Positions 15,665 through 24,667 are shown, counted from the stretch's first letter. The stretch is 64,000 nucleotides of DNA from Candidatus Latescibacterota bacterium (GCA_965261395.1 OZ253462.1:512001-576000), one strand, 5' to 3'. Notes: generated by a model from the letters alone, not told the origin. A program made the numbers and translations.

Positions 15665-18475
15665 ATGGCTACAGGCGCTCGTACTGTGCAGCTTCTGATT
15701 GCGCTCATCTGCTTTTTCCTCTCTGGATTTGCGGGCCTAGTGTACGAGGTGGTCTGGATCCGCCAAGCTTCGTTGCTATTCGGCTCCACTACCTTTGCCC
15801 TCAGTACGGTCCTAGCGGTTTTCTTCTTAGGCCTAGCCTGCGGTTCGTACTTCTTCGGCCGCCACGGTCAGCGGACCGGCCATCCTCTGCTCGTTTTTGC
15901 TCTGGTTGAAATCGGCCTAGGGCTTTTGGTGCTAGCCAATCCCTATGCCTTCGAATTGGTAGACTCCCTCTACGGCACCGTCTACCAATCCCTGGCTGGG
16001 CACGCCATTTTGCACTTCCTGACTCGGATTGTTCTAGTGGGATTCGTGATCTTGCCGCCGACGGTTCTCATGGGCGCCACCCTCCCTCTCTTCTGTCGTC
16101 AGTTTGTGCGCAGTGATGCCAAAATCGCTCGTTCCGTCGGCTTGCTCTACGGCATCAACACCTTGGGCGCAGCCCTGGGTTGTGTCTGCGCCGGATTTAT
16201 CCTTTTGCCTGAGCTAGGCTTTCTGGGCACAGTACGACTCGGGGCAGTTCTGAACATACTCGTAGGCGTCATCGCAGGGTCTCTGCCAATCGCCAGAAGC
16301 GGACTGGCTCGACTCCAGCTTCTAGGGACGGAAGAGAGAGGTCATTGGGGTGTATTTGCGCTGTTTTTTGCCGTTGGCTTTGTAGCGATAGGAGGTGAGG
16401 TGCTGTGGACGCGCTATTTGGGACTTTTGATCGCCAATACAGTGTACACCTATACGCTGACCTTGGCCGTAGTGCTAGTAGGTTTAGTGTTGGGGAGCAT
16501 GCTTGCCTCCCTGTTCTTTGATGGGACGATACATAGAGCACGGTATTTCGGCGTTATCCAGGTGCTCTTGGGGCTGGTAGTACTCCTCCTAATGATGCTC
16601 CCGTCTGACATCTGGCGGCGTCTGGGGGAGGAGTGGTGGATTTATGCAGTTTTACTGCTGCCTCCTGCTGTTTTAGGAGGTGCGTCTTTTCCGCTGGCGG
16701 TGAGAATGGTGGTCGAGGACGCATCCGCGGCGAGCAGTGGCACGGGGAAAATCGCCGCAGTCAACACATTGGGGGGGATCGCAGGATCATTGGCGATCGG
16801 CTTTGTGGGCCTGCCATTCTTCGGCCTGGAGAGCAGTCTCCTCTTCATCACGGGCACGAGCTTGGCTGTCGGGTTCGCTGCGTGGATCTGGCTCGACCGC
16901 ACATCTACCCTAGCCGTTAAAGCGGCATTCATAGTGCTCTCCTCGTGCGTATGGCTCGGAGTTCCCTATCTGATGGCCACCCGTATTCCCGCCGACTTTC
17001 TGGGCGAGCGAGAAGAGCTTGTCGACTTCCGCGAGGGTTATGGCTCCAACTTGGCGGTCATCCGCCAAGATCAAGGACTTCAACTCGAGATCAACCGCTG
17101 GTGGCAGGGCAGGGACCGCAAGACACACCAAGTAATGGCAGCCCACGTCCCTATGTTGTTGCATCCCGATCCCAAGCGGGTCCTCTTGGTGGGCGTCGGC
17201 ACCGGCCAGACCGCGGCTCGCTTTCTGCTCTACTCTATTGACCACCTAGAGTGCGTCGATATCGAACCTACCATCTTCGGTTTTATCCGCTCCCATTTCG
17301 ACTCCAGTTGGATGGCAGATCCCAGAGTCGAGCTAATCGGTGCCGATGGCCGCAACTATTTGCGCCATACCCCTTCGACTTACGATGTGATTTCCCTCGA
17401 ATTGGGCCAGCTTTCCCGTCCCGGCGTGGCGTCTTTCTACACGGCCGACTTCTATCACCAAGTGCAAAAACGGCTGCGTGCTGGCGGTTTTCTGGTCCAA
17501 TTTATCCCCTTGTCTCTTTTGACCGCCGACCATTTTCGCAGCACCGTGCGAAGCTTTCTAGAGGCTTTTCCCCATAGCCTGTTGTGGTACAATACTTCAG
17601 AACTGCTGCTCATCGGTGGCGGACGGGATTTCGCCGTTGATCGGGCCGTTGTCGAAGGACGTCTGTCCAGCGAAAAAATTCGCCGCGATCTGGAGTACAG
17701 CCACTGGGGAGGCCCCCTCTACTGGCTCAACCGACCACAGGTCTTTTTGGGCAGCTATCTGATGGGATCCGCTGGTTTGGCCAAACTGGCGAATGAGGCC
17801 CCGATCTACAGGGATGATCGGCCCGTTCTCGACTATGCGGTCGCCCGCGCCTTTGCAAATCGGACAAACGCGCTCGCGACGCTCGATCTTCTGCAAAAGC
17901 ATTTGGAACCCTTCGCCACCTTGATGCCTATTGGACCAGATGAAAATAGGACCCTTGAGGAAATACGGACCAAAAACTTGCGGGAAATTGCCGCTAGCGC
18001 CGCCCTCCGGCAAGCTAAAGCCCTAATCGCCGTCCGAAACTATCTGGACGCCTCGAGACTGTTGGCAGGCACCCTAGACCAACTACCCGAGCACCTAGTG
18101 GCTAGGCGCACTCTAGCGGATGTACTAATGCGCTTGGGCCGCTTTGAAGAAGCGAGGGCCCATTACACCCAAGTCGTAGAAATCGCCCGGGGGGATGTAC
18201 AGGCCTTGGACGGCTTGGCTCTGGCATTCCACCAATTGGGGCGTCTCGACGAAGCGATCCACCACTACAAGGCTGCGCTACGGCTACAGCCCGACCGGGC
18301 GGCAACCTGTAGCAATCTCGGCGGAGCACTAGCTCGGCGAGGAAAGCTAAAAGAAGCCCAATTCTATCTCGAAAAAGCACTCCAGCTCAAAACTGACTTC
18401 GCCGATGCCAAACGCAACCTCGCCCAAGTACAAGCGGCCTTACAGCGCAGGGAGCAATCGCGCCCTTCACCGTGA
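15665..18475 (+). CDS. Fused membrane domain / spermidine-synthase-like SAM methyltransferase with C-terminal TPRs
   Basis: LSGFAGLVYEVVW multi-TM N-half; VLLVGVGTG and DGRNYL SAM-fold motifs; TPR tail. Confidence 0.88.
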   Translation: MATGARTVQLLIALICFFLSGFAGLVYEVVWIRQASLLFGSTTFALSTVLAVFFLGLACGSYFFGRHGQRTGHPLLVFALVEIGLGLLVLANPYAFELVDSLYGTVYQSLAGHAILHFLTRIVLVGFVILPPTVLMGATLPLFCRQFVRSDAKIARSVGLLYGINTLGAALGCVCAGFILLPELGFLGTVRLGAVLNILVGVIAGSLPIARSGLARLQLLGTEERGHWGVFALFFAVGFVAIGGEVLWTRYLGLLIANTVYTYTLTLAVVLVGLVLGSMLASLFFDGTIHRARYFGVIQVLLGLVVLLLMMLPSDIWRRLGEEWWIYAVLLLPPAVLGGASFPLAVRMVVEDASAASSGTGKIAAVNTLGGIAGSLAIGFVGLPFFGLESSLLFITGTSLAVGFAAWIWLDRTSTLAVKAAFIVLSSCVWLGVPYLMATRIPADFLGEREELVDFREGYGSNLAVIRQDQGLQLEINRWWQGRDRKTHQVMAAHVPMLLHPDPKRVLLVGVGTGQTAARFLLYSIDHLECVDIEPTIFGFIRSHFDSSWMADPRVELIGADGRNYLRHTPSTYDVISLELGQLSRPGVASFYTADFYHQVQKRLRAGGFLVQFIPLSLLTADHFRSTVRSFLEAFPHSLLWYNTSELLLIGGGRDFAVDRAVVEGRLSSEKIRRDLEYSHWGGPLYWLNRPQVFLGSYLMGSAGLAKLANEAPIYRDDRPVLDYAVARAFANRTNALATLDLLQKHLEPFATLMPIGPDENRTLEEIRTKNLREIAASAALRQAKALIAVRNYLDASRLLAGTLDQLPEHLVARRTLADVLMRLGRFEEARAHYTQVVEIARGDVQALDGLALAFHQLGRLDEAIHHYKAALRLQPDRAATCSNLGGALARRGKLKEAQFYLEKALQLKTDFADAKRNLAQVQAALQRREQSRPSP

Positions 18476-18500: not shown

Positions 18501-19397
18501 TTACCGCACGAGCGTCATCTTGCGGCTCTCTGCTCTCTTGCCGCTCTTCAAACGGTAAAAGTAGATGCCGGAGGGAACCGGCTGCCCTCCGGCGTCCCGA
18601 CCTTCCCAATTCACCCTATAACGACCGATCTGCAACCGCCCAACCACCAGATTGACCACAGGCCGTCCCAGTACATCAAAAACCTGTAAATGCACTTCTG
18701 TTTCACTGGACAAGCTAAAAGGGATGACTGTGCCGCTGTTAAAGGGATTGGGGTAATTACTCTCCAACTCAAAATTCCTTGGTTGCCCCTTCGACATCTC
18801 CAGCCCTGCGGTCGCCTCTAGCTGTTCCCGTTCCTTATCGCCAGCCAAAATCGCCGCGCCCAAATTATCTAGCGCCTCCTCAATGTGCTGGCGGATAACC
18901 TGTTCGTTGAACCGACGGGCAACAGCGCCCACCGAACGATAGCGCAAAATCCCCTCGTGGTCGATCACCGCATAGTTATGCTGGGTAAAACCATAGAGGG
19001 ATCCTACTGTACTGGCTTGGAGAAGAAGAGGGTAGGTCGTTCCTGTTCTCTGGCGAAAACTCAAGTCCACCTGTTGGCTGATGCCGTCCGCTACATCCAC
19101 GCCAATTAAGACGAATTCCTCCCCTTTAAAATCCTGCCAAATCTGCTCTATCTTCGCGGCCTCCGCGAGACAGTGACTTCAGATAAAACCGAAAAAGTTG
19201 ATAAGGACCACCTTGCCGCGAAAATCGCTCAGAGATACATAGTCGCCCTCTAGCTGCTGCAAAGTGAAACCCGGCGCTAGCTTGCCCGCCTCGGGCACTT
19301 GCCCCATCGTCCCTTGGACGCTTAACAGCAGAGCGATCAGTGGTCCCCAAACAACACCTCTGCTCGCCTTCACACGGTAGTTCATCACCTTGACCAT
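18501..19397 (-). CDS. Secreted TlpA/redoxin selenoprotein (UxxC) with FlgD/T9SS type-A-like C-terminal domain; UGA at 19179-19181 read as Sec
   Basis: ORFs 19179..19397 and 18501..19100 share one frame, joined by a single TGA: RGKVVLINFFGFI-U-SHC-LAEAAKIEQIW; C-terminus NYPNPFN...GIYFYRL...RKMTLVR. Confidence 0.85.
19148..19173 (-). promoter_or_regulatory. Candidate bacterial SECIS hairpin
   Basis: CUGUCU-CGCGG-AGG-CCGCG-A-AGAUAG starting 5 nt after the UGA; loop about 16 nt downstream and G-containing. Confidence 0.7.
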
Positions 19398-21147: not shown

Positions 21148-21607
21148 AATTTGCGCCGGGAGTGCTGTCCGCCTTGCCGGCAAGACTTCGTAGTCTTTCG
21201 AACGGACCTAATAATTGACCAACCAAGCAAAGGTGCGTTCGACCACCTAGCGGCGCTTCGCCCCTTGACCTTTTTGCTGGCGTCGTATTCAATGGTTTTG
21301 CCCTGCCCGTTTTACCTTGCCTTGCGGTTTTGACGCTCTACTCGTTGACGACCCCATCCGCAGGGATGGGTCGACGGCCCTGCCGGGTTCGATCCTGTTG
21401 CGTTAGAGCGTCCAAAATCCTTTCCCTATGGCCTTGTCGGCCCCAAAATGTGTTTTAAAAACGGTAATAAAAAATAAATATTGTTTACAATACTATATGT
21501 TCCTTAACATAAGTAGTACATTTCTCGGCCCTGACATCGTAGTGCTGAAACACAATGCTGCAGATCTTGCGCGGTTGATGCGTTCGATATGTGCACAGGA
21601 GGCCCCT

Positions 21608-24600
21608 ATGAGACTCCCGAGTCACCCCTCGCCCTGCCCTGCCCTGATTCTCATCTTTTTGCTCGGTCTGAACCTCGTCTCACCCCAGCCTACTGAAGCT
21701 CAGAAGCAGGGATACCGGATCGTCGGCAACCAAATCATTGTCAACTCCCCAGCCCATTGGGAGCGTTGGAGCATGCCCGGGCATGCCGTGAACATACTCT
21801 CCTCCGGCGGCGTCCACCCCCACTTCTCCCGCTCCCGATTCAATGTCCTAGACGACCTGGAAACCTATACTCGCCGCTTGTTAGATTTTAGGCGCAAGAA
21901 GAATCAGACCGCCGTCTTAAATATCGACAGCACCGAAACGCTGGATGTCTTCGGCAATATCATACGCGACCGCAAGGACAACCCCCTCTACACCTACCTA
22001 TCCCGCATAGGGATCAGCCGCGTCGGATCCAATCCTAGGGCGGCGGCCAACATTCTGGACGGCGATCCCAGCACTTTCTGGGAACCCGACTTCAACGACC
22101 CCATAGAGGACTGGTGGGTCGAGGTGGACCTCGGCCGGAGCCTGCCCGTCGACGAGTTGGTCTTAAATTTTGTCGATGAGTCGTTGGGCGACCCCTTCCG
22201 CCAGTTCAGAATATTGAGCGCTCCTTTCCAAAAGGTTATCAACCAAGAGGTGAACGAAATCCCCTTTCGCCGCGAAGGTGGGACCAAAGGCTCCAATCAG
22301 GACCAGCGGGTGTTCTCTTTCCCGTTGGACCAATTCCAGGCCGATCCCAACTGGATTGGGGAAACCATCCAGATAATCCGCATTGTAGTAACCGATTCCA
22401 AATTCGGCCGGGGCAAATTGATTTCAGAAGAGGAATGGTCTGCTCTGAACTCGGCGGATCGAGGAGATGTGGTCTATTTTATTAAGAACCGGCAGGGATT
22501 CGAAGAACCAGTTGAAAAATCTGTCTACGACGGTCTGTCGCCCGAACGCCAAGGCAAGATAGAGCACTACATCCGCGAACGGCCCCGGCTGGCCGACATC
22601 CAAGTCTGGGGATTTGGGGACAATCTCAGCCCGGGGCTCGTAGCAGGGGGCGGCTCAGCCGCCTTCCTGGGGGCCAACGATTCCTTTTCTCCGGCAACGG
22701 CATTTGACGGGGATGGAGGCTCCAATTTTATCCACCTAGTCTGGTCTCCAACGGTGGACCGGGGGGTTCTGTTCGTGGATATGGGGGCTACTTTCTGGTT
22801 GGACACCTTCCGCATGTCCTCCTCCCTGCCTCGACTTTTGATCGATGGCTATATTCTTCGCGGCTCGGACGGATCGCGTGATTCTAGCGGCCGGATCAAA
22901 TGGCGACGCATAAGTGCCCCGGCCCGAGAACACAACATGACAGATCGGTTCGAGCACCTGATGGACGTGTACCAGCCCCCTCCCAAAGTGCGATTTCTAG
23001 AAGTAATCATCGTCTCCGATGATCCCCGCCGCCGGGGCGGTTATACCGCCGGTCCGAATGTTTCCGAATACCAACTCTTCTCAAGTGGCTATCCGGCTGC
23101 CGTAGAGTTGGTCTCAGATCTGATCGAACTGCCGGGGACGCGGAATTTTGGCGGTATCACTTGGGAAGCAGAGACTCCGCCAGAGGCCACGCTGGAGGTG
23201 CGCACCCGCACTGGCGATCTGCTGGCCAAGGAAATCCGCTATTTCGACAAAGGTGGTACGGAAATTACCGCCGCCGCTTGGGGTAATCTCATCGGCAGTT
23301 TCAAAGGTCCGGCGGATACCACCCTTATCCCGACGAGAGGTTGGAGCCCTTGGAGCCGGGCCTACCAGAACCCGGGAGACCCGGTGACCTCCCCTGGGCT
23401 GCGAAAGTTCATGCAGATCCAAGTCAAAATGATCACGACCGACCGCAATGTTGCCGCCGCCATACAATCCATTGGCATTGAGATGGCCACCCCTGTGGCC
23501 GAACTCATTCTGGCCGAAGTGTGGCCCGTCGATATTCCTACTCCGGGCATCGTCGATACCTTTGAAGTATTTATCCAACCCAATTTTATCGAAAGTCCCT
23601 CTAGATCGCGCAGTACTGGGTTCGATGAAATCCTGCTGACCATGCCCGCTTCCCAAAGCATGGAACTCCTCGAAGTGGGCCTAGACACCGATCCCCAGAC
23701 CGATGGGGAAGATCAAGTTTTCCTTCCCATTGAAGAGGGAAGTTTCGTCGACGAAAACGGTGGGTTGCTCCGGTTCTTGGGTCCTACCACTGGCTCCGAT
23801 TCCATCTGGGTGCAACTACCCACCCCACTCCATAGCCTCTCCGATTTGCCCAAAATCTATAACAAAATCACCACAGAAGGGGATCAAGTCCCGGTAACAG
23901 GGGACGGCTTGCTGCTTTCGGGGGATTCTTACGGGCTGCTCGAAGACGAGGAAAAGGGAGATATTCTCTATTTCGATGCAGAGGGCAACTCCATCGATCA
24001 GGCCTCCTACCTTGCCCTCGAAGAGGAGGAGCAAGGCTCCGTGCGCTTCTTTAGGCTGCTGAACGGGGCGGGGGCTCAGTTCCCCTTCGACGAGGTGGGC
24101 GATTCCCTCGATGTTGCCGCCTACAACCGCCTCTCCAGCAGGATAAAAGGCAACATAGTCGGCCGAGGTCCGCTGGTACGGCTGCGCTATAGGGCACCGG
24201 TCTTTCTCAATGGCACTACTCTGCGCCTAGCTGTACGCAATACCAGCAGTGGCGCTGATGCTCCATGGCAGAGCATCGCTGCCGGCGATGCGACCCCTTT
24301 GGTGGGGAGCAATTCCCTTTCTATCAATGTGCCGTTAGAGAGTAAGCCCATCGATAAATTTAGTCTAGACCCCAATCCCTTCACCCCTAATGGGGATGGC
24401 ATCAACGACGAGGTGGTGATTCGCTTCTCCATCTTCAAAGTAACTGCCAGCCGCCAAGTGAAGGTGAAGATTTTCACTTTGGCTGGCCGCTCGGTATGGG
24501 AGACGACGCAGATGCTCGACAGCGGCCACGTTTCAATTCGCTGGTCTGGCGAAGACCGCAACGGCCAAAAAGTGGCACCCGGGCTCTACCTCTGCCAGCT

Positions 24601-24667
24601 AGAACTGGATGTAGACAACCAAGCAGACGGGTCCACCCAAACCCGTCTGCTTTCCGTCGCCTACTAG
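21608..24667 (+). CDS. Large secreted protein with discoidin-like modules and FTPNGDG (FlgD/T9SS type-B-like) C-terminal domain
   Basis: AGGAGG RBS; signal peptide; ILDGDPSTFW..VDLG; PNPFTPNGDGINDE...W.G...PGLY...SVAY. Confidence 0.85.
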   Translation: MRLPSHPSPCPALILIFLLGLNLVSPQPTEAQKQGYRIVGNQIIVNSPAHWERWSMPGHAVNILSSGGVHPHFSRSRFNVLDDLETYTRRLLDFRRKKNQTAVLNIDSTETLDVFGNIIRDRKDNPLYTYLSRIGISRVGSNPRAAANILDGDPSTFWEPDFNDPIEDWWVEVDLGRSLPVDELVLNFVDESLGDPFRQFRILSAPFQKVINQEVNEIPFRREGGTKGSNQDQRVFSFPLDQFQADPNWIGETIQIIRIVVTDSKFGRGKLISEEEWSALNSADRGDVVYFIKNRQGFEEPVEKSVYDGLSPERQGKIEHYIRERPRLADIQVWGFGDNLSPGLVAGGGSAAFLGANDSFSPATAFDGDGGSNFIHLVWSPTVDRGVLFVDMGATFWLDTFRMSSSLPRLLIDGYILRGSDGSRDSSGRIKWRRISAPAREHNMTDRFEHLMDVYQPPPKVRFLEVIIVSDDPRRRGGYTAGPNVSEYQLFSSGYPAAVELVSDLIELPGTRNFGGITWEAETPPEATLEVRTRTGDLLAKEIRYFDKGGTEITAAAWGNLIGSFKGPADTTLIPTRGWSPWSRAYQNPGDPVTSPGLRKFMQIQVKMITTDRNVAAAIQSIGIEMATPVAELILAEVWPVDIPTPGIVDTFEVFIQPNFIESPSRSRSTGFDEILLTMPASQSMELLEVGLDTDPQTDGEDQVFLPIEEGSFVDENGGLLRFLGPTTGSDSIWVQLPTPLHSLSDLPKIYNKITTEGDQVPVTGDGLLLSGDSYGLLEDEEKGDILYFDAEGNSIDQASYLALEEEEQGSVRFFRLLNGAGAQFPFDEVGDSLDVAAYNRLSSRIKGNIVGRGPLVRLRYRAPVFLNGTTLRLAVRNTSSGADAPWQSIAAGDATPLVGSNSLSINVPLESKPIDKFSLDPNPFTPNGDGINDEVVIRFSIFKVTASRQVKVKIFTLAGRSVWETTQMLDSGHVSIRWSGEDRNGQKVAPGLYLCQLELDVDNQADGSTQTRLLSVAY

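Follow-up and report, generated by a model that had tools for sequence, protein, structure and literature searches.

A predicted secreted selenoprotein with a UxxC redoxin domain and a type IX sorting domain in Candidatus Latescibacterota

Described UxxC selenoproteins and exported redoxins

Selenoproteins that carry selenocysteine (Sec, U) as the first residue of a UxxC motif and that match PF00578 or cd02966 have been catalogued since 2004-2008 (PMC9312934, PMC13188914, PMC1088965, PMC2398784, in their accessible portions). In this study, we describe a gene of this kind in a stretch of 64,000 nucleotides from the genome of a Candidatus Latescibacterota bacterium (GCA_965261395.1, OZ253462.1:512001-576000), which is referred to as the window and to which plain coordinates refer. 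The gene encodes a protein in which a single in-frame TGA interrupts a redoxin domain and in which the C-terminus matches the sorting domain of the type IX secretion system (T9SS). According to its motif and domain, the gene belongs to the known UxxC selenoproteins termed peroxiredoxin (Prx)-like or thiol-disulfide isomerase-like. As far as the accessible portions of the published accounts go, its product shares with these proteins a thioredoxin fold that hits PF00578 and PF08534, the position of Sec and the widespread occurrence of Cys homologues, and it differs in its T9SS tail, which those portions do not mention (PMC9312934, PMC13188914, PMC1088965, PMC2398784). The words "secret" and "periplasm" were not found in the accessible part of a 2026 review. 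Furthermore, a literature search whose coverage did not extend to subscription journals returned no T9SS-tailed selenoprotein and no class-wide rule of Sec usage, and none for Latescibacteria, Latescibacterota or Gemmatimonadota. Neither the T9SS tail nor a bacterial class in which Sec is the rule, as it is here with 90 of 96 matches, turned up in that literature.

ResA of Bacillus subtilis and the TlpA family resemble the window protein in their fold and in a CxxC at the start of helix 1, and they are exported, as is predicted for the window protein; the latter differs in having Sec in place of Cys, no Trp before the active site, His140 at the cis-Pro position and a T9SS tail in place of a membrane anchor. 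The same layout of signal peptide, redoxin domain and NYPNPFN motif occurs in Cys redoxins with T9SS tails from other bacteria of the Fibrobacterota-Chlorobiota-Bacteroidota (FCB) group (P0114, a "redoxin domain-containing protein" of a Candidatus Marinimicrobia bacterium; P0076, P0077 and P0086). The FCB-group Cys homologues are 34-37% identical over 88-96% of the query and, because they have CxxC and not UxxC, they are annotated whole by gene callers. Etrx1 and Etrx2 (2YP6, 4HQZ), two surface lipoproteins of Streptococcus pneumoniae, offer a functional analogy, since they have a TlpA-like fold outside the cytoplasmic membrane; they differ in being Gram-positive lipoproteins with Cys. The NF041054 family of selenoproteins is ResA-like as well, but its motif is WAxxUGC and not UxxC, and the window protein reaches only 19.7 bits against its cut-off of 300.

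A single reading frame with a conserved in-frame TGA

Translation of the minus strand with TGA as U yields 298 residues in which U73, in the context FGFI-U-SHC, is the sole internal stop. Gene calling with table 11 produces two open reading frames (ORFs) from the same sequence, one of 72 aa (19179-19397) and one of 199 aa that starts from an internal GTG (18501-19100). The original prediction, made from the sequence of the window, held that these two ORFs are one frame broken by one TGA at the first Cys of a thioredoxin CxxC, and both statements are borne out, the site being of the ResA/TlpA type. Differences from six orthologues are distributed over the three codon positions as 25/33/65 upstream of the TGA and as 88/71/204 downstream of it, in the same frame, and as 9/18/49 in the upstream subset of codons 33-72. 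The excess at third positions on both sides indicates that both parts are under purifying selection as one reading frame. Moreover, the Pfam AhpC-TSA/Redoxin domain straddles the TGA, so that neither fragment represents a whole domain. The best 68 database clusters (80-96% identical) are all C-terminal fragments of 195-203 aa, and the four of them that bear a name are each called only "T9SS type A sorting domain-containing protein". Gene callers therefore do split this selenoprotein gene, as had been suspected. Judged from sequence data, the locus is very probably a real selenoprotein gene that annotation has cut in two.

The TGA is widely conserved among relatives, whose public labels are "Candidatus Latescibacterota" or "Gemmatimonadota". 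Full-length orthologues with exactly one TGA and 86-92% identity are present in 10 of the 24 other genomes of the same genus in our draw of relatives, and the search of the class returned 12 same-genus orthologues with the TGA. Throughout the class, 69 of 132 genomes match at E<=1e-15, with 94 matches, 90 of which have one TGA and four of which have none; the corresponding figures for the phylum are 71 of 168 genomes and 96 matches, 90 with the TGA and six without. The position of the TGA was verified in 50 fetched loci, which include some genes fetched twice, and in every one of the 50 it encodes the U of G-x-x-U-x-x-C. Paralogues of approximately 40% identity, including a second copy in the same genome, also have one TGA. 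Four of the six matches that lack it were inspected, and they comprise three CxxC members of the family and one canonical WCPPC TlpA-like gene. An alignment of 22 rows (A1; nine Sec and 13 Cys rows, the latter being the 13 of 20 fetched database homologues that could be placed) is invariant at position 73, which is either Sec or Cys, and at C76. The database homologues that are called whole, that is, the 13 in A1, have Cys at position 73. The alternation of Cys and UGA that was to be expected of a selenoprotein is thus seen at this site, and dozens of paralogues keep the TGA. A family whose homologues never carried the TGA or the hairpin described below would have looked different: 90 of the 96 matches have the former, and the latter is kept.

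A misread codon is not a sufficient explanation. The TGA is spanned by contigs from three metatranscriptome libraries (two studies) and from one DNA run, which extend at least 31 letters to either side of it; these DNA-run and RNA-library contigs have no listed difference at its three positions. Because these contigs are independent and come from other studies, a sequencing error in the window, with TGC or TGT as the true codon, is excluded. One RNA-library contig corresponds to 18602-19291 and runs across both called ORFs. The gaps in RNA-contig cover, at approximately 19290-19360 in X15 and X16, should not be taken for a transcript end.

The genome consists of a single 6.55-Mb contig that holds the window. 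The genes selA (562.8 bits, cut-off 267.9), selB (345.8 bits, cut-off 242.25) and selD (374.9 bits, cut-off 125) and a tRNA-Sec (70 bits, gathering score 47, anticodon tca according to ARAGORN) were all found on this contig, and the search for the Sec machinery that had been proposed as a check was therefore successful. Since these genes and the selenoprotein gene share one contig, their co-occurrence is not explicable by a binning artefact. In addition, of the 34 long frames in the window, 17 terminate with TGA, and neither selA nor selB contains an internal stop; TGA is accordingly a common true stop that has not been reassigned in this genome. The selD gene (G000:C1:167936-168859, locus L013) is itself a selenoprotein gene: a single TGA interrupts its frame in the context CGG-U-ASK, and a stem-loop may form approximately 12 nt 3′ of this TGA.

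An 11-bp hairpin with a G-containing loop had been predicted to follow the TGA, and it is indeed present: the stem has one G.U pair, and the sequence reads CUGUCUCGCGG, the loop AGG and CCGCGA-A(bulge)-GAUAG. Relative to the UGA, its six-bp upper stem begins at a distance of 10 nt and its apical loop at one of 16 nt, and the hairpin shares with the bacterial Sec insertion sequence (SECIS) the form of a stem-loop just 3′ of the UGA with a small G-containing apical loop. In an alignment of 27 unique sequences (A2), of which 25 are distinct over 45 nt, five pairs of the upper stem are paired in all 25 distinct sequences and the sixth in 21. Both-sided changes occur at pairs 14-28 (one sequence), 15-27 (one) and 16-26 (four), with U-A replaced by A-U once, C-G by G-C once and G-C by U-A four times; the hairpin is thus conserved among relatives, with compensatory changes at three pairs. 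The lower stem is poorly kept, with pair 10-33 present in 12 and pair 13-30 in nine of the 25 sequences. The observed covariation score was reached by none of 500 shuffles, a control that overstates the covariation signal because the sequences are related. When the 3′ arm is slid by one to three columns, pairing falls to 30-47%, compared with 84.7% in register. Furthermore, one paralogue group encodes LSRAES rather than LAEAAK at this place and yet keeps the stem in the same register, which argues for a constraint on the RNA beyond that on the protein sequence. The single frame, the Sec machinery, the Sec/Cys alternation and the conserved hairpin are all directly supported.

Redoxin domain, export signals and competing explanations

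The Pfam models AhpC-TSA (E 8e-15) and Redoxin (E 1.5e-10) match residues 37-162, and the best domain relative in NCBIfam is ResA, at 51.6 bits against a cut-off of 170; the DsbE model (30.6 bits, cut-off 123) and the TlpA model (30.1 bits, cut-off 230) also remain below threshold. The predicted structure has a predicted local distance difference test (pLDDT) score of 82.3 and is composed of low-confidence residues 1-31, a thioredoxin fold at approximately 39-185, a low-confidence linker at 186-194 and a seven-strand beta domain at 199-296, with U73 directly before the helix 74-90. Foldseek retrieves ResA with a template modelling score (TMt) of 0.85-0.88 and a root-mean-square deviation of approximately 2 Å, together with 2LS5, a putative disulfide isomerase of Bacteroides thetaiotaomicron, at 34% identity. 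A profile search of solved structures gives 2ls5 at E 3.6e-26 and ResA at E 6e-20, and the closest structures in the two approaches taken together are 2LS5, the Geobacter thioredoxin-family protein 3KCM and ResA. In alignments, U73 and C76 correspond to Cys74 and Cys77 of ResA and to the two Cys of the WCxxC motif in canonical TlpA-like genes; the model, Foldseek and the alignment agree that the C/UxxC is located at the N-terminus of helix 1 in a thioredoxin fold, as in TlpA and ResA. A contig profile search with a six-row alignment (A3) returned, past eight close relatives, mostly canonical WCxxC TlpA-like genes, which served as an alignment control only. The Trp before the active site is missing (FGFIU versus WATWC), and the cis-Pro position of 3KCM aligns, in a comparison of sequences only, to His140, in a column of A1 that holds D, E, Q or H. 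To our knowledge, a conserved cis-Pro loop opposite the active site is universal in the thioredoxin-fold TlpA/ResA class. The residue three positions before U is Gly in all Sec rows, and the T/S-x-x-C/U context of peroxiredoxins is consequently absent. Because the protein lacks this Trp, the cis-Pro and the T-x-x-U/C context, we name it a relative of the ResA/TlpA-like thiol-disulfide oxidoreductases and an equivalog of neither enzyme.

The tail, NYPNPFN...RKMTLVR, matches TIGR04183, the T9SS type A sorting domain, with 41.2 bits against a cut-off of 23 over residues 215-294 of 298, and the same residues match Pfam Por_Secre_tail (29.1 bits) and FlgD_ig (29.4 bits) just above the cut-off. A relationship to FlgD, the flagellar hook cap, was considered and rejected: only the Ig-like module matches, the FlgD equivalogs score 18-22 bits against cut-offs of 230-383, and its neighbours are not flagellar genes. 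At the N-terminus, a basic n-region precedes the hydrophobic run VVWGPLIALLLSV, which aligns with the N-terminal hydrophobic segments of the homologues. The predicted length of 298 aa and the predicted tail are therefore confirmed, and the predicted signal peptide was judged by eye and by this alignment. The genome encodes PorU, at 618.4 bits against a cut-off of 420, and SprA, at a summed 594.9 bits against 200; the presence of both is observed directly, as are the fold and the match to the sorting domain. A PorV-like gene adjoins porU. The selA gene lies approximately 5 kb from the gene of SprA, the T9SS translocon (G000:C1:2059017-2060366 and 2065172-2070727), and this proximity is probably a coincidence. 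A tblastn search with the redoxin tail returned 199 matches in the genome, which indicates an organism with a very large set of tail-bearing proteins. Other tailed genes interrupted by TGA were sought among them; in 26 of the 199, 40 or more open codons precede a TGA boundary, and of these only the two redoxin genes resemble cases of read-through; the others are neighbouring genes that end in TGA, or noise.

We consider it highly likely that the protein is a secreted selenoprotein in which a signal peptide, a ResA/TlpA-like domain and a flexible linker precede a T9SS type A sorting domain, with the active site U73-S-H-C76. Sec insertion, export, surface location, substrate and re-reduction are steps that we infer, and they might proceed as follows. 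SelB and Sec-tRNA(Sec) would read the UGA as selenocysteine, guided by the stem-loop 10 nt after it, and the unfolded preprotein would pass the inner membrane via SecYEG. The C-terminal domain would then hand the preprotein to SprA/PorV/PorU for export to the cell surface or the medium, with processing by PorV and PorU. Outside the cell, the selenolate of U73 would attack a disulfide, or a different oxidised form of sulfur or selenium, in a substrate, and Cys76 would resolve the mixed selenenylsulfide and leave an Se-S bond to be reduced again. Sec is more nucleophilic than Cys and more easily re-reduced after oxidation, and it is a reasonable inference that Sec is what makes the enzyme workable beyond the outer membrane. 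The original prediction had described an exported, possibly surface-located selenoenzyme; the selenoprotein has held up, and the surface location stays conjectural because only part of the T9SS was found. Provided that the protein is made, the sequence features render its delivery to the surface moderately likely.

Several observations weigh against this reading. The 71-nt fold of the window hairpin has -20 kcal/mol and z = -1.66, and 11 of 200 shuffles were as stable; taken alone, the hairpin is not beyond chance, and it is convincing only across relatives. The encoded residues A-E-A-A could account for part of its conservation. Two Cys paralogues, one in genome G026, where it stands in tandem with a Sec copy, and one in genome G042, have a hairpin at the same place, which shows that the stem also occurs outside the TGA genes; such hairpins may be leftovers of a recent replacement of Sec by Cys. 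Because RNA libraries can hold DNA, the RNA-library contigs speak weakly for transcription. The N-terminus looks like a signal peptide of the Sec export pathway by eye only, and the cis-Pro loop is lacking in the alignment, which means that the domain is not a textbook TlpA/ResA. The PorV-like gene scores 150 bits, under the cut-off of 250; GldM (TIGR03517, PF12081) and GldL have no match in the genome, and GldK has matches only below the cut-off, to its C-terminal part, although the absence of GldK, GldL and GldM is not thereby demonstrated, since the control genomes were silent in two of the Gld searches. Finally, a redoxin at the surface would be out of reach of the reductant supplied by CcdA/DsbD in the inner membrane, and no donor is evident beyond the outer membrane.

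A rival possibility is that the selenoprotein stays periplasmic or membrane-bound, that its beta-sandwich is a structural FlgD-Ig-like module, and that it acts like ResA, TlpA or Etrx and is re-reduced via CcdA/DsbD. The scores of FlgD_ig and Por_Secre_tail are nearly the same, and FlgD_ig scores higher in relatives; the Gld components and the PorV-like gene are as described above; and the nearest solved relatives, ResA and the lipoprotein Etrx2, are extracytoplasmic membrane-tethered reductases. However, TIGR04183 is well above its cut-off and the domain is at the extreme C-terminus in a genome with approximately 199 such tails, PorU is above its cut-off with a PorV-like neighbour and SprA is present, and in other members of the family the tail is swapped for a dockerin-like end or preceded by a beta-lactamase-family domain, as expected of interchangeable modules. 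We regard a periplasmic or membrane-bound enzyme as unlikely, although it deserves consideration. A peroxiredoxin-type peroxidase with a peroxidatic Sec, in place of a thiol-disulfide oxidoreductase, appears to us quite improbable. AhpC-TSA is the best Pfam match, some Cys homologues are labelled "peroxiredoxin" in databases, AhpE and Bcp are among the fold matches, and the cis-Pro of TlpA/ResA is missing, but the Sec belongs to a U-x-x-C that opens helix 1 and matches, in alignments, the CxxC of ResA and the WCPPC of TlpA-like proteins, and ResA/TlpA-like chains outrank peroxiredoxins in both structure and profile searches. Moreover, the Sec-peroxiredoxin motif given in the accessible parts of published accounts is PxxxTxxU/TxxU (PMC13188914, PMC1088965), as opposed to the Gly three residues before U in all Sec rows.

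It is very improbable that the UGA does not encode Sec at all and that the locus is a pseudogene, a pair of genes, or a case of stop suppression that inserts Cys or Trp. Such an explanation could appeal to the two ORFs that gene callers give and to the lack of significance of the single hairpin, but 90 of 96 homologues over many genera share the TGA at one codon, where a nonsense mutation would not be maintained, and purifying selection acts on both sides of a TGA that splits a thioredoxin fold into two incomplete fragments. The genome has the complete Sec machinery and commonly uses TGA as a true stop, and the residue aligned in the homologues is Cys, the usual partner of Sec. A secreted selenoprotein of the ResA/TlpA-like kind is the explanation that we prefer to all of these.

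Genomic context, family variants and implications

The features of the gene are given in Table 1. The gene stands alone, convergent with the gene of a 936-aa protein and divergent from that of a PpiC-type rotamase protein. The former (window 15665-18475, plus strand) has many membrane segments by eye, a spermine/spermidine-synthase domain and C-terminal tetratricopeptide repeats (TPR), and 25 nt separate its stop codon from that of the selenoprotein gene. The latter has two PpiC-type rotamase domains and an N-terminus that resembles a lipoprotein signal by eye. Farther away (window 21428-24667, plus strand), there is the gene of a 1079-aa protein with a T9SS C-terminal domain of the CHU_C type and a weak match to F5/8 type C.

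Table 1. Positions of the selenoprotein gene and its parts in the window
Feature	Coordinates	Strand	Remarks
Whole selenoprotein gene	18501..19397	minus	298 codons and TAA at 18503-18501; single frame, one TGA
In-frame TGA, predicted to be read as selenocysteine U73, nucleophilic first position of UxxC, equivalent of ResA Cys74	19179..19181	minus	
Codon of the resolving Cys76, TGT	19170..19172	minus	Invariant in alignment A1
Predicted Sec-type signal peptide, approximately residues 1-31	19305..19397	minus	By inspection; N-termini of homologues align; low model confidence
ResA/TlpA-like thioredoxin-fold (redoxin) domain, residues 38-162	18912..19286	minus	Pfam, Foldseek, profile search
SECIS-like hairpin	19148..19173	minus	Upper stem 19168-19163/19159-19154; loop AGG 19162-19160; lower stem weaker, with bulged A
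T9SS type A sorting domain, beta-sandwich, residues 215-298	18504..18755	minus	TIGR04183, Pfam, model

The paralogue in the same genome (G000:C1:2949350-2950150, minus strand; L084, L166) has the motif GYS-U-GVC and a T9SS-like tail and is approximately 38% identical to the window protein. Etrx1 and Etrx2 have methionine sulfoxide reductase (Msr) partners; the surroundings of the two family members in the genome yielded no exported Msr, and the MsrA that lies approximately 2 kb from the paralogue has no signal peptide by eye. This MsrA and an NHL-repeat protein near the paralogue were considered as partners and dropped, both being without a signal peptide by eye, and neither the window locus nor the paralogue locus suggests a redox partner.

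Family members in other genomes vary in their C-terminal part. Two members of 639 aa from another genus (L064:1438-3354 and L067:70-1986) have a beta-lactamase-family domain between the UxxC redoxin and a T9SS-like tail; in L064, the one that was scanned, this domain matches PF00144 with 216.6 bits. Two others (L063:1327-2115 and L080, at approximately 1600-2500) end in a repeated D-x-D-G-x-G...DFFLF instead of a T9SS tail, an end that appears dockerin-like or calcium-binding by eye and that has no Pfam match in L063. Several short members, with Sec or with Cys (L065, L070, L076, P0074, P0075, P0116 and P0119), end in W-x-x-I/F-K followed by L-V-H or L-Y-R; this motif, which no scanned library recognised (Pfam being scanned on L065 only), may be another sorting signal. 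All family members with differing C-terminal modules have an N-terminal hydrophobic segment, and this combination is consistent with an extracytoplasmic enzyme whose sorting or anchoring modules can be exchanged. In two loci (L040:1039-2049 and L043:817-1935), the linker between redoxin and tail is a long, acidic repeat of low complexity, (AAADAQ)n in the former and (ETVE)n in the latter. In several paralogues a true TGA stop comes right after the tail, so that a single mRNA would contain one UGA for Sec and another for termination. In L080 (G026:C178:800-3300), a Cys copy with GYS-C-KYC and a Sec copy with GYT-U-TYC stand in tandem, and the hairpin at the SECIS position of the Cys copy is possibly a fossil SECIS; a similar Cys/Sec pair is present in G042 (L081).

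Owing to the fragment calls, the redox domain and the selenium dependence of this family are invisible in the public annotation of at least 69 genomes of the class. The paralogues form a natural series of Sec and Cys versions, some of them in tandem, which is usable for the study of Sec-to-Cys replacement and SECIS decay. Tentatively, and as a proposal with nearly as much in its favour as against it, the gene may be the founding example of a family of selenoenzymes delivered by the T9SS to the surface or the extracellular space, in which Sec is normal throughout one class, the selenol lets the enzyme use environmental thiols or sulfide or survive oxidants, and variants carry dockerin-like tails or a beta-lactamase-family passenger. 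If the T9SS tail works, a selenoenzyme would be displayed outside the cell, which raises the question of how an extracellular selenol/thiol centre is recycled and on what substrate it acts. The family also adds a demand for selenium to what is inferred of the physiology of this uncultured lineage.

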